Shown here: piece after piece, positions 10,011 through 53,636 of the stretch | Layout of the letters: every line of letters starts with the position of its first letter | Numbering within the stretch: the first letter of the stretch is position 1 | DNA from: a virus | Lineage: Duplodnaviria > Caudoviricetes | Reading direction: 5' to 3' (one strand) | Length of the DNA stretch: 60,538 bases | IMG/VR virus record: IMGVR_UViG_3300020044_008864 | Span: 1 to 60,538 of that record | Notes under the pieces: model-generated | What the model was told of the DNA's origin: nothing | The model's database searches: none | The model's input: only the letters and a program-made list of their open reading frames with translations | Translations under genes and position numbers: made by a program

Positions 10011-10067
10011 GCGACACAAACGTCAATTTTTTTTATTGATTGACTGCGATTCCGTACTTTAATGTTG

Positions 10068-10075
10068 TATATTTG
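10068..10075 (+). promoter_or_regulatory. -7 promoter element TATATTTG
   Basis: TAnnTTTG 19 nt before groEL ATG at 10095. Confidence 0.7.
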
Positions 10076-10094
10076 TCTCACTAAATTTAATTCA

Positions 10095-11702
10095 ATGGAT
10101 TCAACGATTGGGTATTCTCCTAAAGATTTGCGTTTCGGTTCTGATGGCAGATCAAAATTAATCAATGGTGTAGCTAAGATGTCTCGTGCTGTTAAGAGTA
10201 CGTTGGGGCCAAGTGGTAACACGGTGCTTATTGAGTCACCTGAGCATACGCATGGTCTTACTGTGACCAAGGATGGTGTGACTGTTGCTAAGTCGATTCA
10301 CTTGATTGACCCTGTAGAGAACCTTGCGGTTAGGATGATGAAGGAGGCTGCTGATAAGACGGCTACCTCGGCGGGTGATGGGACGACTACTGCCATTGTG
10401 TTGACTGAGGCTTTGGTCTTGTCGGGCAATGAGCTGATGGAGCAGGGGTTAAACCGCACTGAGATGTTGCGATCTTTGGTGGAGCAGAGTGAGAAGGTGG
10501 TGGATAAGCTTAAGTCGAGCGCTAAGAAGTTAACGAGCAAGATGCTTGTTGACGTGGCGACTATCTCGGCGAACAATGACAAGGTGGTGGGTAAGATTAT
10601 CGGTGATGTGTATAAGGGCGTTGGCAAGGGTGGCATCGTTACGGTGGAGAAGAGTCAGACGAGTGAGACATATGCTGAGGTGACTAAGGGGTTAAAGATT
10701 GACAGAGGGTATTTGAGTTCTTTGTTCGTGAATAACCAACGCAAGGACGAGTGTGTGTATGAGGATACGATGGTGTTGGTTGCTGACATTGAGATTTCTA
10801 ATCTCTTGCAGCTTGAGAATGTTTTGAAGCCAATCATTTCTGAGGGTAAGAAGCTGTTGATCATTGCCCCATGTAATACCAATGTGGTAAATACGTTGGC
10901 GGCTAATGTGATGAAGGGGAATTTGAAGGTTTGTGCTGTGCCTCCTCCTAACTTTGGGTATAAGCAGCACGAGCTGATGCATGACATCGCTGTTAGCGTG
11001 GGTGCTACCTACTTCAGTGAGAAGACGGGTGATGATTTGAGCCATATTAGCTACGCTGACCTTGGCCATGCGGCTAAGATTATCGTCAATGGTGATCAGA
11101 CTGTGGTTATTAAGTCTAATGTCAAGGCTGACGACGCTAAGATTGCTGAGCGCGTGGAGCAGTTGTGGCAGGCGCACCGCGATGCGGTGAAGAAGAACGA
11201 TAAGGACTTCATTTTGGAGAGGATAGCGTCACTAACCGGTGGCATTGGTGTGATATATGTGGGTGGTAACACTGATCTTGAGCAGAAGGAGCTGTATGAC
11301 CGCGTTGATGACGCTGTTTGTGCTGTTCGTTCAGCCCTTGAGGAGGGTATCCTGCCGGGGGCAGGTATGTCGTTGGCTTATATGGTCAATAATACCATTG
11401 ATAAAGAGCTTAGCAAGGAGCAACGTGTGGCTCAGCAGGTGCTTAACTTAGCTCTTGTGGCGCCGATGACTCAGATCATTGAGAATGCGGGGTTGTGTGT
11501 CAACAATCTGTACCATGGCAAGGAGGAGTTTGGTGAGGGTGTCAATGTGAAGACCAAGGAGAAGGGTAACTTGATAGCTATGGGTGTCATTGACCCGCTT
11601 AAGGTAACGCGTAGCGCTTTAGAGAACGCTATTAGCGTAGCTGTGACTATCTTGAGTACTAACGCTGTGATTACCATGGCAAGAACATATGACGCGCAAT
11701 GA
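10095..11702 (+). CDS. groEL: phage-encoded chaperonin GroEL
   Basis: TLGPSG, TKDGVTVAK, AGDGTTTA, ATISANND, ERIASLTGG, GVIDPLKVTRSALENA; no GGM tail; start moved downstream of promoter. Confidence 0.97.
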   Translation: MDSTIGYSPKDLRFGSDGRSKLINGVAKMSRAVKSTLGPSGNTVLIESPEHTHGLTVTKDGVTVAKSIHLIDPVENLAVRMMKEAADKTATSAGDGTTTAIVLTEALVLSGNELMEQGLNRTEMLRSLVEQSEKVVDKLKSSAKKLTSKMLVDVATISANNDKVVGKIIGDVYKGVGKGGIVTVEKSQTSETYAEVTKGLKIDRGYLSSLFVNNQRKDECVYEDTMVLVADIEISNLLQLENVLKPIISEGKKLLIIAPCNTNVVNTLAANVMKGNLKVCAVPPPNFGYKQHELMHDIAVSVGATYFSEKTGDDLSHISYADLGHAAKIIVNGDQTVVIKSNVKADDAKIAERVEQLWQAHRDAVKKNDKDFILERIASLTGGIGVIYVGGNTDLEQKELYDRVDDAVCAVRSALEEGILPGAGMSLAYMVNNTIDKELSKEQRVAQQVLNLALVAPMTQIIENAGLCVNNLYHGKEEFGEGVNVKTKEKGNLIAMGVIDPLKVTRSALENAISVAVTILSTNAVITMARTYDAQ

Positions 11703-26917: not shown

Positions 26918-28021
26918 ATGGAATTCACATCAGTAAAATTGTTAGACGACAGTAACACGAAAGGTGTTGCAGAGAAAGAAGCTGAATTGCTTGCAAACCA
27001 TGAAGCTGCTCAAGCCGCTTCAGATAACGCAGGACAATTAATAGATGAGACTCCTGAGTCTGCGCCTGCAGGGTCGGTGGTTGAATCAAACGAGTTAAAA
27101 GAAGAAGACGTTCTTTCATATATTGGTAAACGATACAATAAGCAAATCAATTCATTTGATGAGTTGATGGCTGAGCGTAGTCAGGCTGAAGAGATGCCTG
27201 AGGACGTAGCTGCTTATATGAAATATAAGAAGGATACGGGACGTGGGTTTGATGACTTCCTCAAATTGAGAAAGGACTTCGACTCGATGGACCAAGATAC
27301 CCTTCTTAAAGAATACATTAGTTCGACTCAACAGGGTCTTGACCCTGACGATATCGATGTTATGATGGAAGACTACCGTTATGACGAAGATCTCGATGAC
27401 GAGTCGACTGTTAAGCGAGTTAAACTCGCTAAGAAAAAAGCTGTTGCTGAAGCGAAGAGATTCTTCAATCAACAAAAGGAACAATACAAGATGCCACTTG
27501 AGTCAAGTGCGCCATCTGTTTCTGATGAAGAGAAGGAGATATACGAATCGTATAAGCAATACACCAAGCAGGCGAAGACTCTGCAGGAAGAAAACGAGCG
27601 CAAAGCAAAATGGTTTGACAGCAAAACTAACGAGTTGTTTAATGGAGAGTTCAAAGGTTTTGAGTTCAAGATAGATGACAAGACGGTTAAGTTCTCACCC
27701 GGTGATGCTTCCGAGCTTAAGAAAGCCCAATCAAGTCCGATGAACCTCATCGGTAAATTCTTGGATGAGAGTGGGATGATTAAGGATGCCGTTGGATACC
27801 ATAGAGCATTAGCTGTCGCTATGAACCCGGAGAAGTTTGCTAAGTTCTTTTATGAGCAAGGCATGGCTAACGCCACTGACGATGTAATGCGCAAAACAAA
27901 GAACATTAATATGTCTGAGCGCAGAGCACCTGAGGTAACTAATACGGGCGGTTTTCAGGTTAAGGCTGTTAATCCTGATCACGGAAGAAAATTAAAAATT
28001 AGCAGCGCAAAAAGAGTATAA
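26918..28021 (+). CDS. putative capsid scaffolding protein
   Basis: Acidic, helical, between portal and capsid genes. Confidence 0.7.
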   Translation: MEFTSVKLLDDSNTKGVAEKEAELLANHEAAQAASDNAGQLIDETPESAPAGSVVESNELKEEDVLSYIGKRYNKQINSFDELMAERSQAEEMPEDVAAYMKYKKDTGRGFDDFLKLRKDFDSMDQDTLLKEYISSTQQGLDPDDIDVMMEDYRYDEDLDDESTVKRVKLAKKKAVAEAKRFFNQQKEQYKMPLESSAPSVSDEEKEIYESYKQYTKQAKTLQEENERKAKWFDSKTNELFNGEFKGFEFKIDDKTVKFSPGDASELKKAQSSPMNLIGKFLDESGMIKDAVGYHRALAVAMNPEKFAKFFYEQGMANATDDVMRKTKNINMSERRAPEVTNTGGFQVKAVNPDHGRKLKISSAKRV

Positions 28022-40358: not shown

Positions 40359-41957
40359 ATGGCAACATATTACAAATACGCAGAGAGATCCGCAGGTAGC
40401 CAAGTCAATTGGGCCGAGATAGGTAAGAACCTTACCGACACTCTTCAAGAGGAAAATAAGTTACGTGAAGAAAAGAAAGCTGCTATTGACGAGGCGTCAA
40501 GGCAGTATGGTATAACACTTGAGAACTCTCCTCAGGGTGAAAACACTACGTTAAACCAATGGGGATTAAATTTTGGAGGAGATGCCCAAGAGGCTCGTCT
40601 CCTTCAAGACAGATTGCTTAGACAGGGTAAGTTGAGATTAAAGGACTACACTATTATGCGTCAGAACTTAACTGACGGAACTAAGCAGGCGTTTAATCTT
40701 CTTGATGAATATCATGCTGAGTATAAGGAGAAGATGGAAAGATTTAAAGCTACAGATCCTGCTAACGCTTCTCAGCTATTAGAGTCGTGGCTTTTAGAGC
40801 AAGCTGAATCATTTTCTAATTTTAAAAACTCAAAGCTTTATATCAACCCTACAACCTTTGCTGTAAATATAGCTAAGGTAAATAGAAAGGATGGTGTTGA
40901 AGAGATGTCAACCAACCCTAACGACTTTACAACTGTCAGTGAGTTGCGTAATAGAATTAAAGCTCGATACGACAGGTTTGATAGTGATAAGTATCTTGCA
41001 CAGCAAGTTGCTTTATTAGGTACTGAGATACAAGCTGAGTTAAAATCGGGTACATCTACAAAGGTTGGTCAAATAATAACTTTAGAAAGTATTCTTGAAA
41101 GACCCGGTGTTAAAGAAGCGGTATCAGTAATGGTTGAAGCGGGGTTAAATTTACCTACCAATGTTAGCTCAGTACTTACTAACGATCTTGGTAAAGATGA
41201 TAAGGGTAATACTTTTTCATTTACATTTAATAAAGATGAACAAGGTAAGATTACTGCAGACAAAAAGAATCTTATCTATTTAGAAAATATAGATGGTCAG
41301 TTGACACCAAAGTTTACTCCTGAGCAGAAAGAACTTGCGAAAAAATATATGCTTGACAAGTTTAACACAATGCTTACCCGCAAGGAAGATATCGATGTGT
41401 TCACTGAGCCGAGACCTGCTGCTTCGACATCAACATCGTATAAACCCACTGCAGGTCAAAGCGCAGATGCAGGTCTTGGAAACTTAATAGGATATTTATA
41501 TAGTGGAGATGAAGGGCAAGTAAATGCGGCTATCGACGGTTTAAAAAATATGAAAGGAGTTCAAGATATCCAAAGATTTAGAGATCGTGTTGAAGTAAAA
41601 TTTGAAGGAGATAGTCAGTATAGACCAATAAAATTTGGCAGTACTATAGAAGATTTTGTGAGGTCTTTTGGTCTTGCTTTAAACTCTGAGGCTGATCTAA
41701 ACGCAATGGTAGCGGGTGCTTATAACATTGGTAACCCTGTTTTAAATGAAGGGTATGAAACAGGACCTGACTTCATCGGTCAGTTTCCTACGGGCTATGA
41801 TCCTAACAGCATAATCGACCGAACGAAAATGAAGGTATTGACTGATCAGTACGAGCAGAGGAAAAGAGAGTACAATCAAAGAAGAGCGGCACAACAAAAT
41901 AGCGGTGGTCAGCAAGGCGGTGGTCAGCAAGGTGGTGGTACAGGTGAGTTAGATTAA
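40359..41957 (+). CDS. internal virion / ejection protein
   Basis: 532 aa, helical, between ejection genes; GGQQ tail. Confidence 0.7.
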   Translation: MATYYKYAERSAGSQVNWAEIGKNLTDTLQEENKLREEKKAAIDEASRQYGITLENSPQGENTTLNQWGLNFGGDAQEARLLQDRLLRQGKLRLKDYTIMRQNLTDGTKQAFNLLDEYHAEYKEKMERFKATDPANASQLLESWLLEQAESFSNFKNSKLYINPTTFAVNIAKVNRKDGVEEMSTNPNDFTTVSELRNRIKARYDRFDSDKYLAQQVALLGTEIQAELKSGTSTKVGQIITLESILERPGVKEAVSVMVEAGLNLPTNVSSVLTNDLGKDDKGNTFSFTFNKDEQGKITADKKNLIYLENIDGQLTPKFTPEQKELAKKYMLDKFNTMLTRKEDIDVFTEPRPAASTSTSYKPTAGQSADAGLGNLIGYLYSGDEGQVNAAIDGLKNMKGVQDIQRFRDRVEVKFEGDSQYRPIKFGSTIEDFVRSFGLALNSEADLNAMVAGAYNIGNPVLNEGYETGPDFIGQFPTGYDPNSIIDRTKMKVLTDQYEQRKREYNQRRAAQQNSGGQQGGGQQGGGTGELD

Positions 41958-41973
41958 TTATTGAAATAAAGAT

Positions 41974-44900
41974 ATGAACGAGTTACAGAAGTTATACGAC
42001 GTATTAGTTAGAGAAGGAAAGTATACAAAATCCTTTGAAGAATTTCAAAACCAATGGAATGACGAGCAGTATCAATCAAAGGTATACGAGGTAGTACATC
42101 GTGATGGTCTGTATACAAAGGACCGTGACTCTTTCAATCAGAAGTACGGAGCGCAATCTCAACAGCAAGTTCAACAACAACCTGCTCAAGAAGACCAAGG
42201 ACTTGTAGGTAATATAAAGTCCCAATTCCTTAACCAACAACCTCAACAACAGCGAGAACTTCCTCGCATGCCGAATCCGGGAGAGTTAGCCAACATAGGT
42301 AAGGAAGATGAGGATGCTACATTTGATTCTCAGGGTAACTACAACCCTATCAATGCGCTTCCTGAATCTGTAAGAGTAGGAGCTAAGGAGAGAATGGCAG
42401 AGAGCAAAGCAAGAGAGGAAGCAAAAAAAAAAGAAGTGGACAAATTGGCTTCGCAATCCGATTTATCTTCACAACAAAGTCTTGTGGAATCTACTGCAAG
42501 ACAGCAAGAGGAGGCGTCTTCATCGGCGTCTCAGCGGTACGAAGCAGCAGCTGAGAAGTTTCCTATCCTACGCAACGAACTTCTTAAAGACGTATACCAA
42601 CAGTTACAAAAGGAAAAGGACCTTCCTTCTTTTGTAAAAGATCAACTTAATAGCATCACGCCTAACCTTATAAACTTAGGTGAGGCTACTCCATCGGGAC
42701 ATAATATTCCGGGGATGGTTCTCTCAGCATTTCCTATTATTGGTATTCCAATAGGAGCTAATTCGCAAACTTTAGCAGGACTTAGTGTTGAGGAGGCTGT
42801 AGTTCCTAAGATGAATTACATGTTCGGCCCTCTTGGTTTTACGTTTGAAGAGTCAGGAGCAACAGGGGATTACATGACAGTAACAGCTCCTAATAAAGAT
42901 AAGATAGAGATATCTCTTAATAACTATACCGAGAGTAGTAACACCGAAGAAGCAAAGAAACTAAAAAACTTTATTGCTTCTAACTCTACTAAGATCCCTC
43001 AGATAGAAAAGTATGCTGCACAATATGCGGGTAGTGACATGAGATTCAACTCCGAAAAGCAGATAGATATCCACACAGAAGGTATTTCAATACAATACGA
43101 TAACTTAAATAAAGACGCTGCGTTACTTAGCAACGATATTAAAAAAGTTGAAAGTGATTTGGAATATCTTAATAGCGCTCCTGCTAATGAGAGAAACACT
43201 CCGCAGTATCTTGAAAAGAAAAAGGCTACTGAGGCTGCTCTCTTGGATGTTAATACAAGAAGACAGGAAATCATAAGTAGAAATAGTCAAATTGAGGCCA
43301 ACAAAACAAATCTTGATAGAGCTGTTGGTAAATATTCAGCGATGAAAGCTGAGCAAGGCACATGGACCGGAGCTACCGTGTCTTTTATTAGTGAAGGTGT
43401 TTCAACTGCATTATCAGGACTTGCTAATCTTGCTTTAGATTTTAGCTCTGTAGACATGACGGGAGACGTATCTCAACAAAGACAGTCTGCTATCAATAAG
43501 TCGGTTTCAGATAAAGTAGCTACGGGAAATGTAGAAGAGGATGCTAAGCAAGGAGGATTTGTAGTAGATGCTGCGCTTAGATTGAATAACTATAATAGAG
43601 GTCGTGGAAAAAACACCATGCCTGAACCAAAAGAAGGGCAGTCATATAAAGATTGGTATAACTCACTGAGTGCTGACCAAAAGAATGATATACGTATAAA
43701 AGTAGAGGACGATATATTAAAGCGTTCTAAAGAAATAGTATTACCTACGATAAGAGAAGGTATTAAAGGAGCTATAACCGATCCTAACACCTCAGTTGAG
43801 TGGAAGCAATTAGCAGAGGAAGGATTTTGGGGTGGCGCTTACGCAGGTCTTATCAAGTCAGCACCTGCTATGCTTGCTCCCGGAGGATGGGCAGGAAGAA
43901 CAGCAGCGTTCTTTGGTCAAAGTAATGACGCTGTCAATGAAGAGATGAGTAAGAACCCTGCGTTTGCAGACGTGCCTGAGTCTGAGAAGCTATTGGTTTC
44001 AATACCTATTGGTATAGCTAACGCAGTATTAGAGGAGATAGGTCTTAGTAACTTGATTAAGAATAAAGGTCTTGTAAATAGCCTTGTCCTTAAGGGTCTG
44101 CAAAAGGCAGGAGTCAACGCCACGGAGACAACTCTATCTAAGATAATAAAGAACGACGTAGAGAGCATGGTTGCAAGAGGCACGCTAACTCTTGCCGGAG
44201 CAGGTCTTGCTGAGGCTGAGACAGGTGCAGGTCAACAGATTGCTGAGTATGCGGTGAAGGATATCTATAATATAGCTAAGGAGAAGGAGATGTTTGACAC
44301 CCCTGACTCTTTGAAAGAATATGTTTATGATGTAGTTAGGTCAGGAGCACAAGAGGCTGTCGGTGGTTTCGTTATGGGAACACCTTCAGCTGCAGCGGCT
44401 GCCTATCGCAAGCAAGGATTTAAAGGAATGAGTGATGAGCAGTTCGAAACATTTGAGGCGATAGCCAATGATGAGAAGATGCAAAGCTCATTCATCGCTA
44501 CCTTAAAGACCAAGGTTGCATCGGGTGATATGACAATGGAGACCGCTAAGGAAGAGCTTAACGACTATCGTAACTCCGTTGGTTTATACAGATCCATTCC
44601 AACAGACCTAAGCACTGAGGCTAAGAAGGAAGCGATGAACTTGGTTCGTGAGAAGCAGGTAATTGAAGAAAGAATCAAAGACAAAGACGAAGCCTTAGTA
44701 AAGAAGCAGAAGGATCGTATAGCTGAAATTAATGTACAACTAAATAACCTATCAGAAAATGCCGTTCAAAAGCAAACAACAAGTGAAGTTCCTATTCAGT
44801 CAGAAGCCGCAGTTAGCGAAGAAGTGGCGGGAGGAAAACCCGCAGCAGAACCTCAAGTCACTACCGAAGAAGGTAAAGAACAAGAAGTAAATCGTATAAA

Positions 44901-47900
44901 TCCTGAGACGGGAGTTCTTGAGGTTGGTTTAGCAAACCCACCGATAGTTACAATTGAAAGAGAGACTGCTCCTGCTGCAGAGACAACTACCCTTACTCAA
45001 GAAGAACAGGATAGAAAGACTGAGCTTGAATCAGCTATTGCAAAAGATAATGGAAAGGGAACTGTTACTGTAGGTGACGCTCTTGTGCCAATCGAGGAAG
45101 CTCAGGCTGAGTTGGATGCGTTGAATAGTAAAACAGAAGTTGAAACGCGTGAGTCAGTTGAAGCTAATAGAAAAGCTGAGTTAGAAATATTCAAGGATAA
45201 CCTTGATGACGCGTTTAGACCGGGAAGTGATGAGACAGTTGGAGAATATATCAATAGAAAGTACGACGAATATATCAATAGGAAGTTTGGCGAAAAACCA
45301 ACCGCTGAAGTGACGGCTACCGAGGAGGTGACTACTCCTAACTTAGAACTTCAGACAAAACAGAATGAAGTTAAAAATATTGATGTTAAAATTGCTGAAA
45401 TCAATGATAAGGCTGACGCCGAAATTAATGATTTAAAACAGGTTGCTAAATCCAAAACGAAAGAAGCTGAACATAAAATACCTAAATCTGTAAGTTCGTA
45501 TTTAAGCACTCCTAATTCAGATGGTAGTTTTAACAAATCATCTGAAAAAACATCTTTTACTCCGGGTGCTTCCATGTGGGCTTTTGAGCCCATAGGAAAT
45601 AACAGATTTAATGTATATATAGCTAACAATGATGACGCTTCAAAATTAGCTTTAGCATTTCCTATTAGAAGTGTAAGTCCAATATTTCCTAATATACAGG
45701 TTGATTTTAGTAGTGGTGAATTGATGAATGGTAATTCTTTAAAAACCATAGACCCTGCTGTAGTTGAACTTCAAGGAGATAGATACGTGTTGATATCTCC
45801 GGGTAAAATAGATCTTGATAATAAGCTTGTGAAAACTAAATCTACAGAAGTTGATCAAGCGAAAATAGATGAAATAGAAAAAAGAAGAAAAGAGGATTTA
45901 GTTAAATATGAAAGTAAAAAGAAAAAGATTCAAGCCGAGTTGGATGCGCTGAATACTAAGGCTACCACAACCGCTGAGGTGACGGCTACTGCTGAGGTTA
46001 CTCCCGCTGCTGAGGCGGCGCCTGCTCCTAAGAAAAGAGGAAGAAAGAAGTCTGCTCCTGCTGCTGCAGTCGAGGCAGCTCCTGCTGCTGAGGAGAAGCC
46101 AACGGCTAAGCCAAAAGAGGAGCCTGCTAAAGGGAAGTCTCTTCTTACCGATAAGGTTAGAGCGCAGATATCTGAGATTGTAAAAGAATGGAACAAAACA
46201 AAAAAGAGATATCTCAAAGAAACAGGTGAAGAATCTGAAGGAAGAATTGAACTTGAAGTCCATGGGTTTATAGAATCTGCTAATGGATTGTATGAAGATC
46301 TTTTAGACTTTGATTCATTCTCAGGGTTGAAGAACATAAACAAGGATATAGAAAGAATTATAAAAAATTATCCTAATGTAAGCCGTATCGATTTCAAATA
46401 CCCTGAACGAGCAGATGGTGGAGATTGGAATTGGATTACTATCTACGAAGTGCCTACCGCTCCTAAGGCTGAAGCTGCCCCCGTAGTAGAACCTGCGCCT
46501 GCTCCTAAGGCTGAGCCTGCTCCGACTCCAACACCTGCACCGGCTCCGGCTAAGAAGACAGCAGCTGAGAAGAGGTTGGATGAGGATATAAATCAGACAT
46601 CTAATGAGGTTGAGTACTTCAAGGATGAAATTGAAAAACTCAAAGAGGAAATTGCAATAGAGAAGGGGAATACAAAAGAAGAGATTGCTAATGTAAAAGA
46701 AAAGATTGCCAACATAAAGGCAACTGTAACAAGTAAAGCTACTCAGAATAGACTCATTCAAGAGCTAAAGGATAATTTAGGAATATTCAAGGAAGACCAA
46801 GAAAATCAGTTAGAAATATACGCTGAGGACATGGTCCAACTGAAAGCTGATTTAAGAAAGGCAGAGGCTAAACTGAAAAGACTTGAGGCGAAGAAGGCGG
46901 AGACGTCTCCTGCTCCTGAAGTGGAAGCTGAGCCTGCACCTGAGGAGAAACCTGCTCCGACACCTGCTCCGGCTAAGACAGCGAAAGAGATTAAGGCTGA
47001 GAAGGAGTTGGATGATGAGATTAAAAGTCTTGAAAGAGATATTGATATATCTATAGGTAAGATTGAGGATCTTGAAAATGATATTGTAACAGAAAAGGAA
47101 GATAAAAAGGAAGGTACAGAGCGATTCAAGGAACAGATAGCTGAGGTTAAGCAAAAGATATCAGCCCAAAAGAAATCAGGACTTCCTAAAGAAACTATCA
47201 AGACACTTGTCAAAGAACTTGAGGTTGAACTTGATGAATTAGAAGCTAAGTTGTTTCAGTTCAGAGAAGATCAGGACGACTATGTTGAGTCATACAAAGA
47301 AGAGATTGCTCAAGAGAAAGCCGATATGAAGAAGGCTCAGAAGAGACTTGATAAGTTGATATCGAAGAGAGAGCAGATGACTCAGCCTGAAGCTGCTCCT
47401 AAGAAGCCCGGCATTATCTCGATGGCTGAGATTGAAAAGAGATTCCCTCTTGCTGCTGAGTTTATAAAGGCGCAGTACAATAATATTTCTGAACTTACAT
47501 CTAAAGATTCTTTAACCGTATTAGCAGAAGCTTACGATCAGTTAATGAGATATAAAGTAGGTGCTGAAAAACGCTTGCTTCAAATAGAAGAGATTGAAAA
47601 TTTAGTTGAATCATTAGAGCAAAGTGTAAAGAAGGTATCCAAAGAAGAATTCAAGAAGCAGATAGCTGCAAGTGGTGACTTCACTAAGGCGCAACTTAAA
47701 ATATTCAATGCTCTTGTTGATTCACTTCAGACTGAAACAATGCCTGAGTACATGTCGGATGAACAGGCGGCTAAATACAATGCAGGAACTGAAAACTTTT
47801 ATGTCGCTTCTTTAAATAGAATTGTTTCAAAACAACCTGAAGCTTTTATCCATGAGATAGGTCACTTTGGTTTCTTTAGAATACTTTCTAAGGAAGATAG

Positions 47901-50900
47901 AATGAATTTCTATCAGTATATGATTGACTCTAACTATGGTAAGGGTAAACCTTCTTTGGCATCTCGAATGGCTGTCACTGTAGATACTTTGCTTGGACGT
48001 TCTGCTGAAGGTCAAGAGTTTAGATTTAAATCCAACGCTGCCGACAATTTCTCTGAATACTTTGCACAGCAATTCTCAGAGTGGTATATGAACGAACGTC
48101 TATTTCCTAAGGAAATAGATGCCATATTTGGAAAGGTGGCTAAGTTCTTTAATTTACTCATAGAGAAACTTAAATCAGGTGAGTATGTAGATAAGAATCT
48201 TAGCGAATACTTTAATAAGATATCTGTTAAGATTGAGAAGCAGCAGAAGAAGAACGAGAAGATTCAAGATGCCCTTGGTGTTGAGGAGACAATGATGAAT
48301 GAGCTTCAAGACCTTGAAGACTTCTTCGGTATTGATCCCGAGATCTCTCCGATGAATATGAAATACATAACACCACTGCAGAAGATGGCGTTGATGTACA
48401 ACATGACTGAGAGCGGGTTTTTCCCAAGAAACGTAAGCACGTCTCACGTGAATAGAGACTTCGCTCAATTCAACTTAGAGGCTAAGCAGTCAGCGTCAGG
48501 TTCATACTACTTAGTGAACAGAGACACCAAGAAGATGGCTCGCCCATTGCGACAGCCTAAGGGTGGCATCCCTCCGCAGGTATCGAGGATGAGTGTGACT
48601 GCTCAGCCTGCTACTGTTAAAGAAATACTTAGAGAAAAGTTAGATGACAAGGACATTAATTCATTAAGAGCTTCACTAAGAAGAAAGGCTCCTGATAGCT
48701 ATATCATTGAGGTGTTAGATGAGTTGCAGGAGTTAAAGAAGAATGAGAACTTAGTGCCAAGCCAATCTGAAGTTTCTGATTTACTTGATAACGGAGTTAC
48801 TCTTGGTAATGTAATCAATATGCTTATTGAAGATGGAGTATTTGATAACTCTCAAGAAGCTATTAGTTACTTCACTCAGATTGGAGGACAGGAGTCTCAA
48901 GGATTATTTAAGAGATTGTCGGGATTAAAAACAGGAATATCTCCGGAAGTTTCACCAATGAAAGTAACCCCTATCTCTGTCAAGAATATGGGCATGGATG
49001 AGGTGATAGAGACAGCGAGAGAGAATGGTTTCTCTGACGATGTGATCAAGGCCCTTCTTATGAAGAGAGGGTACGCGGCTAAGGATATTGACAGCGCCCT
49101 TACGTTCAACATAAACTTCGCGTCAGCGTATACCAACAACAACCCAAGAACAGACAGCCCACTGCCGCGTCCATTTAGAACCCTTGACGGTGGCGTGAAC
49201 GCCGGCATCAAGTTGTTCTTCGACGTGCGTAACAAGCTGATTGACTTTGCTAAGTCTGACCCTAAAAAGAAGAAGACATACGCTGAGATAAGAGCGAAAG
49301 CTATCGAGCTTCTCAAGGCTAACCCTATCTTCCAAGGACAAGAGGACACCAAGCAGTTGGAGTTGATTGCAGCGTTCGACAAGACGCTTAACATCACAAG
49401 AGGCAAGGCGATATCAGCACAGATAGCTGACATACGCAAGGCCATCAAGGAGAGATTAGAAGGGGTGAAGGACCTGAAGAAGGCGCAGCTTATCTTGAGA
49501 AACTTCATTCGTCAAAGCCTTCCGGCTGTGAAAGTGCCAAGAGTATTCTTTAACCTTGAAGGGATGACATCGCCTGCTGAAGGGATAAACTTCTTCAATG
49601 GTCTACGTAAGCAGATATACGACTTCGCCCGCACGGATGCAAGTGGTGTTGTGGGTAAAAAGATATTGGTGAAAGATGCTGAGAAGATTAAAGAGTTCAG
49701 CAGAAATTTACTTAAGAATACTGAGCTGTATAAGAAGCAGTCACCGGCTGTGCAAGCAGACATGGAGAACGCTCTTATAAATAGTCAGTACACCAAAGGG
49801 GCATCACACACCCTTGACATCTACTCTCAGAAAGAGGTGAACAAGTTAATTGATATAGTGTCTCAGACAGATAGCAAGAACTTCTTATCTCAGGCTGAGA
49901 AAGTATTTGACATCATCACTGAGCAGAGAGCTAAGATTAAGAATGGTCTACTGAAAGAGATACTAACCTTGGTAAATAACAAGGCGGCATCTAACAAGAC
50001 TGCCTCAGGTAAGGTAAGGTCAAAGGGATTGGATGCGCAAGGCCAAGCCTTCTACAAATCAATCAAGCCAATCGTTGCAGCTGCCATTAAGAATGACACT
50101 GAGGCGATGATAAAAATTGCTGATGAGCTTTCTGATTTAGAAGCTATCGGTGACGCTCTTGATAAGGAGGCAGCAGGAGAGGACCTTACTACATTGGAGC
50201 GTGCTCTTCTTGATAAGGTATATGCATTCGACACCTTCGGCGATATCCTCAACATGGAATTAGAAGAGGTGCAGGATCTTCTCGATGGTCTTAAAGGCAT
50301 ACGCTCAGCGTCTATCATTCGCTTGAATGAGAAGAGAGCTGACCGTGCAGCGCAGAGAGAAGCCATGACGAGAGAGGCTGACGAGCAGATTAAAAAAGAC
50401 TTCAAAGCTTTATACAATCCTGACGGAACGCTTAAGGATAAAAACGAACTTGATAATGACAGAGCTATGATATGGCAGTCATTTAAACAAGGAAAGGTAT
50501 GGAATGCTCTTGCGCAATGGCTTGAGCGTTATGACTTTTTTACAACCAATATAACCGATTTCTTTAGAAAGACATTAGCTCACTTGGGTACTATCTCAAA
50601 CATCCTCGATAAGTCAGGTACATTCTTTAATGATAATGTATACCGCCCGTTGAATAGAATGGATGAGGCTAATAAGACTGCATATTCAAACGAGATGAAA
50701 CATCTTGATACCTTAGCGAATTCTATTAAAGGAGTAACCAAAGGGTACAGACAGATCCGTAGACTTATTGAATCTGCAGGTGTAGTTAATATGGTTATCA
50801 ATGGGAAAACAACCCCGAAGAACGGTGATCAGTTGTTAAGAATATACGCTCTTAGTTTGAATGAAGTTCAAAGAGAGAAGCTTCGCAATATGGGGTATAC

Positions 50901-52833
50901 GGATCAGAAGATTGAAGATATTAAAAAAATCCTTGGTCCTGAGGTTATTGAGTTTGCAGATAAGTTAGTTGATTATTTTTCTAATGAATACTACGAGTCA
51001 GTTAATGACGTGTACTCATTTGTTAATGATATAAACCTTGGCTACGTAGATAACTACTTCCCTACTCAGACACTTTCTAAATCTAAAGAGCAAAAGGATT
51101 CAATAGATCAGGATTTATTAAACGGTAATTTCAACGGAATCTTTGACGCCGAGTCTTCACCTGCGTTGAAGGAACGTACAGATATGTCGAGTCCAATCGA
51201 CTTATCTCCTTCATTTACCAATGTTATTGAGAGTCACTTGCAGACAATGGAAAGGTACAAGGCATATGCTGTTGGTGTAAAGAGATTGAACGACCTGTTT
51301 AAGATTGAATCTGTAAGTACATTACTCGATCAGACAGGATTGAAGTCTACCATGAAAACTCTTGTTAATAATTCCATCAATCCCAACGCAGGTATTAATG
51401 AAACGCAAGCGAGATTCAGTGGTATAATGAACAAGTTCTCAGGATATGCTTTGGCTTTCAAACTTGCTCAGATACCAAAGCAAGCAACTGCTATATTAGC
51501 TGCGTATGAAGACTATCAGTTCTTAAAGAACAGAAAAGTTCCCGGATTAGATGCGGTTATGTTTGCTTTTGACGTAGCTAAAGCCTTGACATTTGCTCGT
51601 TCTAACTTTAACAAGTTCTACAATACATCAGGTAACTTTAGAGACCGTATCATAAAAGGTGTTGAAGGTGATGTGTATGGCTTGGAAGCAGGAGGAAGAG
51701 TGTTTAAACCTCTATCTCAAAAGGCAAATACATTAGGTGACGTGAAGAGATTCATAAAGTCATCTGCTGCATCTCCAACAATGGTTGGTGATATCATCAG
51801 TGTGTACGGTTACATGGCTAACTACAACAGAGATATCGCTAATGGCATGAGTCCTGAGGCAGCATTAGAGAAGTTTAACAACTACAATGCGACACTTCAA
51901 TCTCGTAGAGCAGCTGACAAGAGCGCTCTTCAATTTAGTAAGAGTGGATTAGTTAGAGCGTTTTCAATGTTTGGAAGCACAGGTATCTTACAGATGAATA
52001 AGGTATCAATGGCTTATAAAAACATTATGAGAAGTATATTTTCTAAAGGAGAATTCCCTTCAGGAAAAGACTTGAGAGCGTTGGCTATTAACCTTGGTAT
52101 AGCTAACGCTGCATTCGTTGCCGCGTCATATGTCTTCGCTTTAATGAAAGGTGATGACGAGGATAAGGAGATGGTTGAAAAGAAAATGTTTGAAGCTTTG
52201 ATTGGTTTAAACCTTCTTTATCAAATACCATTAGTAGGAACAGCAACAGAAGAGATAGTTAATGCTATTAAAAATAACGCAAACAAAAGCGAGACATTAA
52301 AGGATATCTTCGGAGCAGAGTTTATTAATAACTTGAAAGGCGAGAAGGTTATGGGTGGTGATGTAACCAATCCGTACTCATCTGTCTTTAGAAAGATTAA
52401 GAAATACTATGACGATGACAATACTATTATTGAAAACTTCAGACCTGCTGCTGAACTTGCATTAGGTATGCAGCTTGATCCGTTTATCGGGTTGTACAAA
52501 GGGGCAACTGAAGAGTTTGACGACGAGGTTATGTATGATATCTTAGGTATCAGTCCATCTTACCGACCAAAGAATGCGAGCAGTCTTGAGAATATGAGTA
52601 AGTCTGAGATGAAGAAGTATGACCCTGATGAGTACGAGAGATTGTATGGCCCGGGGTCAGATGGCTACGACGAGGAGCAGGCTAAGAAAGAAGAGAAGGC
52701 TGCTGAAAGAAAGGCTCGTAAGGATGCGATGGATGACTACTACAACTACAGCTCAGGAGATGGAGTGAAGAGAGGAGGAAGTAGAATAGGAGGTAGAGGC
52801 GGAAGCAGAACAGGCGGATCAAGAACCAAATAA
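41974..52833 (+). CDS. giant internal virion (polyvalent-type) protein with zincin metallopeptidase-like domain
   Basis: 3619 aa; IHEIGH (HEIGH at 47851-47865) with downstream SEYFA; P/A/E linkers and coiled coils. Confidence 0.85.
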   Translation: MNELQKLYDVLVREGKYTKSFEEFQNQWNDEQYQSKVYEVVHRDGLYTKDRDSFNQKYGAQSQQQVQQQPAQEDQGLVGNIKSQFLNQQPQQQRELPRMPNPGELANIGKEDEDATFDSQGNYNPINALPESVRVGAKERMAESKAREEAKKKEVDKLASQSDLSSQQSLVESTARQQEEASSSASQRYEAAAEKFPILRNELLKDVYQQLQKEKDLPSFVKDQLNSITPNLINLGEATPSGHNIPGMVLSAFPIIGIPIGANSQTLAGLSVEEAVVPKMNYMFGPLGFTFEESGATGDYMTVTAPNKDKIEISLNNYTESSNTEEAKKLKNFIASNSTKIPQIEKYAAQYAGSDMRFNSEKQIDIHTEGISIQYDNLNKDAALLSNDIKKVESDLEYLNSAPANERNTPQYLEKKKATEAALLDVNTRRQEIISRNSQIEANKTNLDRAVGKYSAMKAEQGTWTGATVSFISEGVSTALSGLANLALDFSSVDMTGDVSQQRQSAINKSVSDKVATGNVEEDAKQGGFVVDAALRLNNYNRGRGKNTMPEPKEGQSYKDWYNSLSADQKNDIRIKVEDDILKRSKEIVLPTIREGIKGAITDPNTSVEWKQLAEEGFWGGAYAGLIKSAPAMLAPGGWAGRTAAFFGQSNDAVNEEMSKNPAFADVPESEKLLVSIPIGIANAVLEEIGLSNLIKNKGLVNSLVLKGLQKAGVNATETTLSKIIKNDVESMVARGTLTLAGAGLAEAETGAGQQIAEYAVKDIYNIAKEKEMFDTPDSLKEYVYDVVRSGAQEAVGGFVMGTPSAAAAAYRKQGFKGMSDEQFETFEAIANDEKMQSSFIATLKTKVASGDMTMETAKEELNDYRNSVGLYRSIPTDLSTEAKKEAMNLVREKQVIEERIKDKDEALVKKQKDRIAEINVQLNNLSENAVQKQTTSEVPIQSEAAVSEEVAGGKPAAEPQVTTEEGKEQEVNRINPETGVLEVGLANPPIVTIERETAPAAETTTLTQEEQDRKTELESAIAKDNGKGTVTVGDALVPIEEAQAELDALNSKTEVETRESVEANRKAELEIFKDNLDDAFRPGSDETVGEYINRKYDEYINRKFGEKPTAEVTATEEVTTPNLELQTKQNEVKNIDVKIAEINDKADAEINDLKQVAKSKTKEAEHKIPKSVSSYLSTPNSDGSFNKSSEKTSFTPGASMWAFEPIGNNRFNVYIANNDDASKLALAFPIRSVSPIFPNIQVDFSSGELMNGNSLKTIDPAVVELQGDRYVLISPGKIDLDNKLVKTKSTEVDQAKIDEIEKRRKEDLVKYESKKKKIQAELDALNTKATTTAEVTATAEVTPAAEAAPAPKKRGRKKSAPAAAVEAAPAAEEKPTAKPKEEPAKGKSLLTDKVRAQISEIVKEWNKTKKRYLKETGEESEGRIELEVHGFIESANGLYEDLLDFDSFSGLKNINKDIERIIKNYPNVSRIDFKYPERADGGDWNWITIYEVPTAPKAEAAPVVEPAPAPKAEPAPTPTPAPAPAKKTAAEKRLDEDINQTSNEVEYFKDEIEKLKEEIAIEKGNTKEEIANVKEKIANIKATVTSKATQNRLIQELKDNLGIFKEDQENQLEIYAEDMVQLKADLRKAEAKLKRLEAKKAETSPAPEVEAEPAPEEKPAPTPAPAKTAKEIKAEKELDDEIKSLERDIDISIGKIEDLENDIVTEKEDKKEGTERFKEQIAEVKQKISAQKKSGLPKETIKTLVKELEVELDELEAKLFQFREDQDDYVESYKEEIAQEKADMKKAQKRLDKLISKREQMTQPEAAPKKPGIISMAEIEKRFPLAAEFIKAQYNNISELTSKDSLTVLAEAYDQLMRYKVGAEKRLLQIEEIENLVESLEQSVKKVSKEEFKKQIAASGDFTKAQLKIFNALVDSLQTETMPEYMSDEQAAKYNAGTENFYVASLNRIVSKQPEAFIHEIGHFGFFRILSKEDRMNFYQYMIDSNYGKGKPSLASRMAVTVDTLLGRSAEGQEFRFKSNAADNFSEYFAQQFSEWYMNERLFPKEIDAIFGKVAKFFNLLIEKLKSGEYVDKNLSEYFNKISVKIEKQQKKNEKIQDALGVEETMMNELQDLEDFFGIDPEISPMNMKYITPLQKMALMYNMTESGFFPRNVSTSHVNRDFAQFNLEAKQSASGSYYLVNRDTKKMARPLRQPKGGIPPQVSRMSVTAQPATVKEILREKLDDKDINSLRASLRRKAPDSYIIEVLDELQELKKNENLVPSQSEVSDLLDNGVTLGNVINMLIEDGVFDNSQEAISYFTQIGGQESQGLFKRLSGLKTGISPEVSPMKVTPISVKNMGMDEVIETARENGFSDDVIKALLMKRGYAAKDIDSALTFNINFASAYTNNNPRTDSPLPRPFRTLDGGVNAGIKLFFDVRNKLIDFAKSDPKKKKTYAEIRAKAIELLKANPIFQGQEDTKQLELIAAFDKTLNITRGKAISAQIADIRKAIKERLEGVKDLKKAQLILRNFIRQSLPAVKVPRVFFNLEGMTSPAEGINFFNGLRKQIYDFARTDASGVVGKKILVKDAEKIKEFSRNLLKNTELYKKQSPAVQADMENALINSQYTKGASHTLDIYSQKEVNKLIDIVSQTDSKNFLSQAEKVFDIITEQRAKIKNGLLKEILTLVNNKAASNKTASGKVRSKGLDAQGQAFYKSIKPIVAAAIKNDTEAMIKIADELSDLEAIGDALDKEAAGEDLTTLERALLDKVYAFDTFGDILNMELEEVQDLLDGLKGIRSASIIRLNEKRADRAAQREAMTREADEQIKKDFKALYNPDGTLKDKNELDNDRAMIWQSFKQGKVWNALAQWLERYDFFTTNITDFFRKTLAHLGTISNILDKSGTFFNDNVYRPLNRMDEANKTAYSNEMKHLDTLANSIKGVTKGYRQIRRLIESAGVVNMVINGKTTPKNGDQLLRIYALSLNEVQREKLRNMGYTDQKIEDIKKILGPEVIEFADKLVDYFSNEYYESVNDVYSFVNDINLGYVDNYFPTQTLSKSKEQKDSIDQDLLNGNFNGIFDAESSPALKERTDMSSPIDLSPSFTNVIESHLQTMERYKAYAVGVKRLNDLFKIESVSTLLDQTGLKSTMKTLVNNSINPNAGINETQARFSGIMNKFSGYALAFKLAQIPKQATAILAAYEDYQFLKNRKVPGLDAVMFAFDVAKALTFARSNFNKFYNTSGNFRDRIIKGVEGDVYGLEAGGRVFKPLSQKANTLGDVKRFIKSSAASPTMVGDIISVYGYMANYNRDIANGMSPEAALEKFNNYNATLQSRRAADKSALQFSKSGLVRAFSMFGSTGILQMNKVSMAYKNIMRSIFSKGEFPSGKDLRALAINLGIANAAFVAASYVFALMKGDDEDKEMVEKKMFEALIGLNLLYQIPLVGTATEEIVNAIKNNANKSETLKDIFGAEFINNLKGEKVMGGDVTNPYSSVFRKIKKYYDDDNTIIENFRPAAELALGMQLDPFIGLYKGATEEFDDEVMYDILGISPSYRPKNASSLENMSKSEMKKYDPDEYERLYGPGSDGYDEEQAKKEEKAAERKARKDAMDDYYNYSSGDGVKRGGSRIGGRGGSRTGGSRTK
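44759..44890 (+). CDS. nested +1-frame small basic protein (43 aa)
   Basis: MPFKSKQQVKFLFSQKPQLAKKWREENPQQNLKSLPKKVKNKK; AT-rich initiation region with A at -3. Confidence 0.6.
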   Translation: MPFKSKQQVKFLFSQKPQLAKKWREENPQQNLKSLPKKVKNKK

Positions 52834-53473: not shown

Positions 53474-53636
53474 TAGATTTAAGTAACTCCTTCAGCTCCA
53501 TGATTAACTTAACAGTCTCCTTCTTACACGCCTCGTGTTCTCTATCGACAAGAGTCTCATAGATTATAGTCAATGAATCGTGATGCTCGTTAATGAGTAT
53601 CAGTATCCGTGCAGCACGTTCATTTTCTAAGTTCAT
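53457..53636 (-). CDS. small helical protein (59 aa, not in track)
   Basis: MNLENERAARILILINEHHDSLTIIYETLVDREHEACKKETVKLIMELKELLKSIERDF. Confidence 0.65.
   Translation of the reverse strand: MNLENERAARILILINEHHDSLTIIYETLVDREHEACKKETVKLIMELKELLKSIERDF

Follow-up and report, generated by a model that had tools for sequence, protein, structure and literature searches.

A small gene of a widespread phage protein family appears to lie out of frame within the linker of a giant phage gene

Results

A complete small ORF within a giant structural-block gene

The window analysed here is the whole 60,538-nucleotide stretch of the tailed-phage record IMGVR_UViG_3300020044_008864. Five features of the window, all encoded on the plus strand, concern us here.

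41974..52833, plus strand: host giant gene, an ORF of 3,619 aa and the last gene of the plus-strand structural block
41974..44751, plus strand: conserved giant N-terminal domain (aa 1-926), delimited by tblastn and alignment
44734..44758, plus strand: A-rich, G-poor stretch before the nested ATG, resembling the gene starts of this phage
44759..44890, plus strand: nested small gene (43 codons and a TAA stop), lying in the giant gene's frame +1
44782..44985, plus strand: disordered linker in the giant frame (giant aa 937-1004), based on AlphaFold2 pLDDT and the linkers of relatives

The nested ORF begins with the ATG at 44759, closes with a TAA ending at 44890, and encodes a product of 43 aa, MPFKSKQQVKFLFSQKPQLAKKWREENPQQNLKSLPKKVKNKK. 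It lies entirely within ORF 41974-52833 at an offset of 2,785 nt, which corresponds to frame +1, and the giant frame reads NAVQKQTTSEVPIQSEAAVSEEVAGGKP across it; the ORF and both readings were thus described correctly in an earlier note on this DNA. By itself, the length of the nested ORF is within chance expectation and ordinary for an alternative frame, as the giant gene contains two same-strand out-of-frame ATG ORFs of at least 43 aa and five when any start codon is allowed. It stands above chance because of its conservation, selection signature, and homology. The product is predicted to form a two-helix core (residues 6-15 and 17-26) followed by a Lys-rich tail (AlphaFold2 pLDDT 88.8).

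The sequence upstream of the nested ATG reads ...CAACTAAATAACCTATCAGAAA, and no Shine-Dalgarno motif occurs in 44734..44758. Scored with a position weight matrix trained on 54 gene starts of the window, the start context reaches 4.76, a score that ranks second among the giant gene's 203 internal ATGs and, set against real starts, falls at the 61st percentile. In 58 unique nested contexts, 72-90% of the bases at positions -13 to -11, -3, and -2 are A. The A-richness 5' of the ATG is partly owed to a helix of the giant protein that is rich in Lys, Glu, Asn, and Gln. A scan for sigma-70 promoters, using a model ill-suited to Bacteroidota, found fewer sites than in shuffled sequences.

The giant protein has no match in PHROGs and none in Pfam (run on three parts of the protein), and it carries a HEIGH motif. 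The Elemovirus ortholog by position is annotated as structural and carries DUF3293. Homology between the giant protein and its relatives stops just 5' of the nested ORF, with tblastn alignments to three loci (L142, L097, and L104; 41-51% identity) ending at giant aa 926-927. Beyond this point, AlphaFold2 gives pLDDT <50 at residues 137-204 of a fragment starting at giant aa 801, equivalent to giant aa 937-1004. Most of the overlap falls inside this disordered linker, the first ~8 overlapped codons forming the end of the preceding helix. Relatives that do not have the nested ORF carry a short, unrelated linker of Ala, Pro, and Glu at the same site. The low pLDDT and the unrelated linkers both support the earlier reading of the host frame as a disordered linker.

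The nested peptide belongs to a large family of phage proteins

An earlier note likened the nested peptide to small basic phage proteins encoded by stand-alone genes, and database searches bear this out. Using tblastn, we identified stand-alone ORFs of 34-39 aa with an MPFKS start in Phage C75C1, Synechococcus phage S-CBS2, and phage 023Pt_psg01. The peptide matches the phrog_1375 profile over residues 3-27 (E 0.0027, 19.1 bits), and 15 of the 30 aligned phrog_1375 members match in turn, with a best E of 3.6e-8. An HMM built from 28 stand-alone copies scores 53.7 bits against the nested ORF (E 2.6e-15), and its position 1 is the Met; these copies were retrieved by a pattern over the first 8 residues, so that stretch of the match is partly circular. 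Searches found 446 small relatives, down to E 3.6e-17, and 4,304 cluster representatives at E <= 1e-3. The interval 44759-44890 most likely holds a genuine second gene, of the phrog_1375 family, that annotation has missed.

Hallmarks of the family are a Met-Pro-Phe-Lys-Ser start, two short predicted helices, and a Lys/Arg-rich tail. In other phages it is found either as a gene by itself, 35-60 codons long and located in the head-assembly block, or as the first ~40 residues of longer proteins. Among the best 150 representatives, 134 have matches that begin at residue 1-3, and the family is mostly an N-terminal module of ~40 aa. The module heads unrelated longer proteins, which have no BLAST similarity to the giant protein. 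The stand-alone copies are found alongside different portal and terminase families, including those of cyanophage S-CBS2. The nested peptide shares the length class, N-terminal motif, predicted two helices, and basic tail of phrog_1375, but the stand-alone members examined sit between other genes, whereas the window gene is embedded in other coding sequence.

Pfam returned nothing for the nested peptide, for 155 relatives, or for the scaffold-position proteins. The family DUF3008 (PF11450) has a similar start (MP.KS..Q) and end (LP.K), and it is the nearest named cluster in the ESM Atlas (score 0.85), where only 15% of members carry the family. Direct comparison gave no DUF3008 match in any of 156 proteins (nested peptide at E <= 10, 155 relatives at E <= 1), and membership was rejected. 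Profile matches among PDB sequences were limited to designed beta-propeller repeat proteins and were rejected as additive noise, because each repeat scores about 5 bits. Foldseek found no match in the PDB, and solely uncharacterised members of the same family in BFVD. Literature searches, judged by title and abstract, turned up nothing on the MPFKS motif or the nested gene.

Distribution of the nested ORF among relatives

To sample relatives without bias toward the nested ORF, the upstream neighbour gene was used as a query that is blind to it. This returned 42 loci, 12 of which are too short for a presence/absence call. The nested ORF is present in 26 of the 30 informative loci, always in frame +1 of the downstream giant ORF and 546-1,124 aa from its start. 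It is absent from the remaining four (L097, L098, and L104, with >2,100 aa scanned, and L096, with the whole record scanned). In a second set, obtained with the flanking giant segment as query, all 10 loci that reach the site have the nested ORF, which is ~84% identical vs 48-49% for the flank. A further 35 loci (L016-L050) were retrieved via the nested peptide itself, and 80 of at least 388 viral contigs with the motif were taken into the analysis. Querying the phage collection with the surrounding 3 kb by distant-mode blastn produced no match.

The nested gene is missing from the complete relatives G001 and G004, from a three-member clade, and from Maribacter phage Panino. It is therefore not essential, as some relatives do without it altogether. 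In one lineage (two contigs) the ORF is truncated to 29 codons. Peptide subtypes track the clades of the neighbouring-gene tree, on which absence needs just two changes, and the nested copies appear to be old within this phage group. In seven loci, an ORF of this kind is nested in a second host gene, the ortholog of window gene 26918-28021, again in frame +1. The earlier note named a lack of homologs and an unconserved start and stop as the outcome that would count against the gene; the opposite was found, with homologs present and start and stop kept. Its expectation that standard annotation would overlook the gene also held. The nested ORF is unannotated in 68 of 68 cultured Elemovirus records, and in these and in MW202828.1 only the large structural gene is annotated over the match. 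In the vB_FspP_elemo phages, whose host is Flavobacterium sp. BAL314, it starts at 53581 of NC_062743.1.

The small frame could instead be reached by programmed +1 ribosomal frameshifting, in which case the product would be the truncated N-domain joined to the basic module, in place of or besides a free 43-aa peptide. In two proteins, P0123 (1,075 aa) and P0291 (203 aa, N-terminally incomplete), the module is fused in-frame to the C-terminal end of a large protein that finishes at the stop of the module, so a fusion product is a natural form. The module also lies near the C-terminal end in 8 of 111 longer relatives, most of which look like upstream-extended gene calls. Against frameshifting, every nested copy seen keeps the ATG, homology to the stand-alone proteins starts exactly at this Met, and even the P0123 and P0291 fusions retain a Met at the junction. 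Moreover, a small-frame stop occurs 1-22 codons upstream of the ATG (a single codon in L137), which leaves almost no space for a shift site, and no conserved slippery motif was noticed by eye in the flank, which is itself unalignable between loci. We therefore regard frameshifting as improbable.

Selection and codon use in the two frames

Variation among nested copies follows the codons of the small frame. Mean pairwise diversity at small-frame positions 1, 2, and 3 is 0.137, 0.057, and 0.338 in 42 unique sequences, and 0.267, 0.156, and 0.383 in the unbiased set, an alignment of 27 loci. In the latter, pN/pS is 0.29 for the small frame, 1.68 for the giant frame, and 1.05 for the third frame, from Nei-Gojobori counts that treat overlapping frames as independent, a known bias. 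Serine codons swap between AGC and TCN with Ser retained in the small frame. These patterns indicate purifying selection on the nested small frame.

In each of the 61 unique nested copies neither frame is interrupted, while the shadow frame of the stand-alone copies contains a mean of 5.5 stops and is open in none of the 28. Codon choice differs accordingly. T occupies 2.2% of third positions in the 61 nested copies, 24.6% in the 28 stand-alone copies, and 36.1% in the genes of the window, and the nested ORF of the window has T at the third position in only 1 of 43 codons. With T-ending codons nearly absent from the nested ORF, the giant frame stays open. Since both frames are open and conserved in orthologs, the two genes appear to be a same-strand dual-coding pair.

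Conservation of the island as a nucleic-acid element, such as a junction where recombination shuffles modules of the giant gene or an RNA signal, would make the +1 frame a by-product or the unexpressed relic of a captured gene. The island is indeed the sole alignable stretch between giant-gene flanks that otherwise cannot be aligned, and the N-domains that precede it lack any similarity that BLAST can detect; in MW202828.1 the portal is 78% identical, yet the giant region has no match. The codon-wise variation described above, with its third-position excess, Ser codon swaps, low small-frame pN/pS, and kept start and stop, argues for a protein instead, as do the higher identity of the peptide (86%) than of the nucleotides (82%), the lack of an Rfam match to the interval, and unremarkable RNA folding (z = 0.57). 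A nucleic-acid element is very unlikely as the explanation.

Discussion

The observed conservation, frame-specific selection, homology, dual-frame adaptation, and linker position are best explained by an older small gene that was read through by the giant gene and that persists as a genuine second gene, translated from its own ATG and serving an accessory role. We put the probability of this reading at about 80%. The phages concerned would be podoviruses of the type that infects Flavobacteria, with the small gene in frame +1 inside the interdomain linker of a giant virion gene. The small frame would be the older and constrained one, and the giant reading a tolerated, disordered, acidic spacer. 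Both frames would be maintained, the small one via selection on its amino acids and the giant one via removal of T-ending codons that create stops. We infer that ribosomes on the late structural mRNA start independently at the ATG of the small gene to make the peptide, probably in the Shine-Dalgarno-free, A-rich manner of Bacteroidota. The product may be a small basic accessory protein tied to head assembly, packaged DNA, or the giant protein, and it seems dispensable in some lineages. Gene neighbourhood, charge, and domain fusions are the basis for viewing it as a late, virion- or DNA-associated, basic two-helix protein.

Regarding direction, it is most likely that the giant ORF engulfed or overprinted the small gene, as the earlier note suggested; this is consistent with the distribution, the small family being far wider than the linker. 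De novo birth of the small gene by overprinting in an ancestral giant frame, followed by its escape as a stand-alone family, hardly seems credible: in its favour, the 43-aa family yields no resolvable rooted tree that would prove the direction, and the nested copies are old within the phage group, but the 4,304 cluster representatives extend far beyond the giant-gene linker, stand-alone copies occur in phages of different portal and terminase families, the module heads unrelated proteins, and the giant frame encodes a disordered spacer that is poorly conserved and swapped for unrelated linkers in relatives. The presence/absence pattern is equally compatible with a cassette in the linker of a gene that was already continuous and with two genes having fused. 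When loci carrying stand-alone copies were searched by tblastn with the giant protein, nothing matched; no relative therefore turned up with the small gene placed between separate homologs of the giant halves.

A more speculative and rather doubtful extension is that the MPFKS cassette, as a portable stretch of coding sequence, persists through lodging out of frame in the disordered linkers of late virion genes, its peptide acting as an address or DNA-binding tag. The host is the giant protein in most of the group and a scaffold-position gene in others, and the host frame is always one base ahead of the cassette. Such a cassette would gain late expression with no promoter of its own, and recombination between the mosaic halves of the giant gene would have no other conserved DNA to use. 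Elsewhere, the tag would be covalently attached to virion-delivered effectors (DUF3293/SAM-lyase-like, ligase, DUF5661, DUF6321, and HExxH proteins), and here the peptide would act in trans with the giant protein.

Returning to the older small gene read through by a giant one, complete small genes of about 40-60 codons that lie on the same strand, out of frame, within larger genes include Rz1 inside Rz (the lambda spanins) and comS inside srfAB of Bacillus subtilis, the latter in a giant host gene of about 3,600 codons. Both are lineage-restricted embedded genes. The nested gene is likewise complete, small, on the same strand, and wholly inside a larger gene, but it has no sequence relation to either and its family is widespread. 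An embedded Rz1-like spanin was excluded, as the nested peptide is hydrophilic and basic, with no signal peptide, lipobox, or Cys. One peptide subtype does bear Cys, within the helices and not in a lipobox.

Another parallel is a model outlined for Hepatitis B virus, in which a short pre-existing gene (PreS/S) lay between two coding regions and a new frame across it became the polymerase spacer, a linker joining both into one multidomain protein (Pavesi, 2021, PMC8227390). The same account describes the phylogenetic criterion by which the more widely distributed frame is taken as ancestral. We propose the same relation between the small gene and the linker of the giant protein. Hepatitis B virus differs in being a reverse-transcribing virus of animals whose overlap is long, and its scenario is itself presented as a hypothesis, whereas the overlap here is 132 nt in a dsDNA phage whose relatives have the giant gene with and without the cassette. 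As for the host protein, polyvalent virion-packaged proteins as described by Iyer et al. (2017, PMC5512222) are similarly giant and multidomain, are encoded in the portal-terminase block, and carry HExxH, and the Elemovirus counterpart carries DUF3293, a further likeness to them. The giant protein of the window differs in that Pfam and PHROGs identified no domain in it, and it is a candidate for this class only.

The usual explanation of overlapping viral genes is that a new frame arose within an old gene, and proteins born in this way mostly lack relatives. In the present case it is the embedded frame that has thousands of relatives, and the host frame would be the makeshift one. Close relatives with and without the cassette offer a clean natural case for the mutual accommodation of two frames. 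The finding also brings to light a large family, uncurated and with no Pfam model, of phage proteins and N-terminal modules of ~40 residues, whose nested members were entirely missed by genome annotation across the 68 cultured Elemovirus genomes. The system lends itself to direct tests, because the nested gene is present in cultured phage-host pairs and because a single base change (ATG to ACG) removes the small start and is silent in the giant frame, where AAT becomes AAC and Asn is kept.

A small gene nested in the giant structural gene

The 60,538-nt window, a virus record in IMG/VR, has genes for GroEL, a large terminase and a portal, along with a series of virion structural genes on the + strand. 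The last of these holds a second reading frame:

41974-52833, + strand: giant ORF of 3,619 aa, closing the structural block
44759-44890, + strand: nested ORF of 43 codons (ATG at 44759, TAA ending at 44890), frame +1 relative to the giant frame, 2,785 nt past the giant start

The host is probably a member of the Flavobacteriia because the closest named relatives of the portal infect that group: the Flavobacterium phages vB_FspP_elemo (Elemovirus; 68 records) and phages of Cellulophaga, Tenacibaculum and Maribacter. The uncultured MW202828.1 (78% identity) is likewise among the portal's nearest named relatives. The GroEL gene (10062-11702) matches phrog_5725 (E 5e-131), and GroEL and GroES-like genes are also annotated in the elemo and Panino relatives. 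In the giant protein an HEIGH (HExxH) motif occurs alongside several Ala/Pro-rich spacers, an RGG-like C-terminal tail and a pair of similar coiled-coil blocks that follow AP-rich spacers; three parts of it searched against Pfam and PHROG gave no family match.

Re-reading the sequence returned exactly the coordinates, frame and length described for the nested ORF in the earlier note. As a bare ORF it is ordinary: the giant gene includes two out-of-frame, same-strand ATG ORFs of at least 43 codons, and five if GTG and TTG starts are also counted. On the sequence evidence, we regard it as a real, long-maintained and unannotated overlapping gene whose translation is predicted. The observation is thus confirmed, and the interpretation that the giant ORF overprinted or engulfed a small gene is supported.

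Conservation among giant genes

A query with giant aa 601-928, directly upstream of the site, retrieved 11 viral contigs, and all 10 that reach the site have an ORF beginning MPFKS in frame +1. Eight of these ORFs encode 41-44 aa; the other two are identical and encode 29 aa, shortened in one lineage (L008/L010, the contigs of loci L114/L134) by a CAG-to-TAG change at codon 30. This short form retains the two-helix core and has lost the basic tail. In this set the peptide is ~84% identical to that of the window, versus 48-49% for the flanking giant protein.

The neighbouring gene (40359-41957), chosen as a second query for its independence from the region, yielded 42 loci, which were scanned in six frames with the family HMM. 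The small ORF is present in 26, always +1 of the downstream giant ORF and 546-1,124 aa from its start. It is absent from L097, L098 and L104, each with a giant ORF of >2,100 aa, and from the whole of L096, a complete record that has terminal repeats; 12 of the 42 loci were too short for a call. Two complete relatives lack the small gene, and it is dispensable in at least two lineages.

In the cultured Flavobacterium phage elemoC_14-1A the ORF lies within the giant gene gp20, also in +1. All 68 elemo records hold it, and the sole annotation over the match is "structural protein", as expected from the earlier claim that standard annotation would miss the gene. The uncultured MW202828.1 has a 43-aa copy beneath one giant CDS. 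A shortened second start of the family unit (HKK-MPFKSKKLMK, then a stop; L138:37583, NC_062743.1) occurs in elemoC_14-1A gp20, in +1 and 396 nt before the complete nested ORF, with the same HKK ahead of it, and suggests a local duplication within the giant gene. The giant ORF stops ~340 nt past the small ORF in L123 (8810-11692), and near the conserved stretch holding the small ORF (the island) it is broken into two overlapping ORFs in L134 (8571-10943 and 10918-13590); these interruptions may be real splits or assembly frameshifts.

The N-terminal domain of the giant protein (aa 1-926) shares 41-51% identity with L142 (a complete relative without the small gene), L097 and L104, in alignments that end at giant aa 926-927; the L098 alignment reaches aa 1053. 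The nested ORF spans giant aa 929-973. Relatives without it have a short Ala/Pro/Glu-rich linker at the site, and past this linker L142, L097 and L098 become homologous again to the window, in the region of its downstream "...AQAELDALN" sequence. AlphaFold2 modelling of giant aa 801-1100 gave confident helices to residue 935 and pLDDT of 35-40 at 937-1004, in line with the earlier description of the giant frame here as a disordered linker. Based on these alignments and the predicted disorder, the small gene occupies an interdomain linker. Because the giant-gene flanks of the island are mostly unalignable over the wider set, and the giant region around the island in MW202828.1 has no BLAST-detectable similarity to the window despite a portal that is 78% identical, the giant genes are mosaics joined at or near the island, and much more mosaic than the remaining structural block.

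Selection on the two frames

Across 42 unique 108-nt sequences, mean pairwise diversity at small-frame positions 1, 2 and 3 is 0.137, 0.057 and 0.338. Variation is greatest at small-frame third positions, which are giant-frame first positions, and giant-frame wobble sites vary least, the constraint that the earlier note had proposed to look for. Identity is 0.863 for the small-frame peptide versus 0.588 for the giant frame, and at Ser5 and Ser14 codons swap between AGC/AGT and TCN while the residue stays Ser. As 35 loci of this set had been fetched via the peptide itself, the analysis was redone on loci fetched via the neighbouring gene (23 loci, 18 unique, first 27 codons; four Cys-type loci with a two-codon insertion excluded). 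In these, pN/pS is 0.29 for the small frame, 1.68 for the giant one and 1.05 for the third, values whose direction is more reliable than their size since Nei-Gojobori counts take overlapping frames as independent. An Rfam search of the island gave no match, and its RNA folding is no better than that of shuffled sequences (z = 0.57).

The giant frame is maintained as well. A giant-frame stop arises wherever a small-frame third-position T precedes a codon beginning AA, AG or GA. Codons ending in T make up 2.2% in 61 unique nested copies (1 of 43 in the window's ORF), 24.6% in 28 stand-alone copies, which are not nested in another gene, and 36.1% in 17 window genes. The shadow frame is open in none of the 28 stand-alone copies (mean 5.5 stops). 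Given this depletion and the closed stand-alone shadow frames, nested copies have been recoded, keeping the giant protein intact.

A widespread family of small phage proteins

The likeness to stand-alone phage proteins, pointed out in the earlier note, holds. Searches with tblastn found MPFKS-start ORFs in Phage C75C1 and Synechococcus phage S-CBS2 (unannotated in both) and in phage 023Pt_psg01 (annotated, 39 aa). The window peptide matches phrog_1375 (unknown function in PHROGs; E 0.0027; 15 of 30 aligned members match), and an HMM built from the 28 stand-alone copies alone matches the window ORF from its Met (53.7 bits, E 2.6e-15), with no other segment of the window better than E 0.6. The copies in Phage C75C1 (L001:1501-1605) and S-CBS2 (L002:1501-1611) stand alone in gaps between annotated CDS, so the family is under-annotated even where un-nested.

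With a cutoff of E <= 1e-3, a profile search gave 446 small proteins (best E 3.6e-17), none with a Pfam domain and all, where named, "hypothetical protein". Of 1.84 billion cluster representatives, searched exhaustively with an HMM, 4,304 score E <= 1e-3 and 811 reach E <= 1e-10. Among 185,579 species-representative genomes there are only 17 matching loci, 16 under MAG or uncultured-bin titles and one in a Prochlorococcus sp. AG-409-L21 record, a pattern that fits a phage-borne family. DUF3008, a candidate by resemblance, is the nearest named cluster in the ESM Atlas (0.85); membership in it is unsupported, as Pfam scans of the window peptide and its relatives gave no model covering the family. 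AlphaFold2 (100-sequence alignment; pLDDT 88.8) predicts helices at residues 6-15 and 17-26 and a basic extended tail, and fold searches with this model found uncharacterised relatives only.

The ~40-aa family unit (the module) usually sits at the N-terminus. The best 150 of the 4,304 representatives range from 40 to 707 aa, and 134 of these 150 have it beginning at residue 1-3; of 111 longer proteins, 101 have it beginning at residue 1. Apart from the module, the proteins that it heads are unrelated; they include a DUF3293/SAM-lyase-family protein (P0313), DUF5661 proteins, a LigD-type ligase, a DUF6321 protein, P-loop proteins, a cupin and one protein of 1,096 aa that has an HExxH motif. They resemble kinds that appear among the virion-delivered polyvalent proteins of Iyer et al. 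(2017; PMC5512222). In two proteins (P0123, P0291) the order is reversed: a large upstream protein ends in the module, fused in frame. In P0127 (352 aa) the module is joined to E3-binding and 2-oxoacid dehydrogenase acyltransferase domains; its composition suggests a chimeric assembly more than a genuine fusion.

Genomic settings and a second host gene

Most stand-alone copies are housed in head-assembly blocks, and GroES-like genes adjoin such copies repeatedly in other contigs.

Settings of stand-alone copies
L051, L064, S-CBS2: adjoining the portal and a phrog_7595/phrog_220-like small protein
L060, L080, L082, L091, L092, L094, 023Pt_psg01: between the portal and holin, lysozyme, GroES and phrog_28737 genes
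L086, L089: behind the large terminase
L078: behind the major head protein
Two copies: near ribonucleotide reductase genes

Of 80 loci fetched with the peptide, 44 have the ORF nested and 28 lack any same-strand frame that contains it; one is ambiguous and seven escaped classification by the exact-motif script. Seven of the 80 (L069, L073, L074, L077, L079, L084, L085) have the ORF in a second host gene, again in +1, one base behind the host's frame, and in the N-terminal region of a ~400-aa gene. This gene has the portal (phrog_6547, like the window's portal) on one side and phrog_13704 on the other. Its ortholog in the window is gene 26918-28021 (35-36% identity, E about 1e-53), in an alignment that leaves out the ORF-holding region. 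This second nesting occurs within the same broad phage group as the giant-gene nesting. The arrangement is also found in L062 and L067, where the large containing ORFs have no detectable similarity to the giant gene of the window.

Expression and function

The window's gene starts follow A-rich, G-poor sequence that lacks a Shine-Dalgarno motif, in keeping with translation initiation in Bacteroidota. With a weight matrix built on 54 putative gene starts of the window, the nested ATG scores 4.76, ranking 2 of 203 ATGs internal to the giant gene and at the 61st percentile of real starts. Over 58 unique nested contexts, A occurs at -13 to -11, -3 and -2 in 72-90%, part of this A-richness stemming from the host's Lys/Glu/Asn/Gln-rich helix.

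Frameshifting from the giant frame into the small frame is a less likely rival route, retained since in-frame fusions of the module do occur in nature. However, a small-frame stop lies 1-22 codons upstream of the nested ATG, which would leave little space for a shift, and no conserved shift motif was seen by eye in the largely unalignable flank. Together with the start-like context, this favours independent internal initiation at the nested ATG on the late mRNA, by which the small peptide would be made. Its late head-related location, its strong positive charge, its place as the leading module of diverse proteins and two fusions to the N-terminal part of giant genes tentatively suggest a DNA- or virion-associated accessory protein that would work with the head or ejection machinery, a role we consider possible, with the odds against it.

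History

A maximum-likelihood tree of the neighbouring gene (41 rows; L126 and L136 dropped as too short) has its midpoint root between carriers of the small ORF on either side. Loci without the ORF, four in all, fall in two places, the clade (L104,(L097,L098)) and L096, sister to the window, and peptide subtypes (Cys-bearing; "...PQNLRPLRRLR") track clades. The simplest reading, from a tree of an adjacent gene with an arbitrary root in mosaic genomes, would be an old nested state passed on vertically with two losses. By the distribution criterion quoted in the Pavesi review (PMC8227390), the wider-spread of two overlapping frames is the ancestral one; since the small frame is widely distributed, it would be ancestral and the giant-frame linker the newer reading. 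The same review sets out a comparable model for the spacer of the hepatitis B polymerase.

The overlap is thus unusual in that the embedded frame appears to be the old and widely distributed one, and in that it lies within two different host genes. Cultured Elemovirus-host pairs make the translation and function of the small ORF open to experiment.
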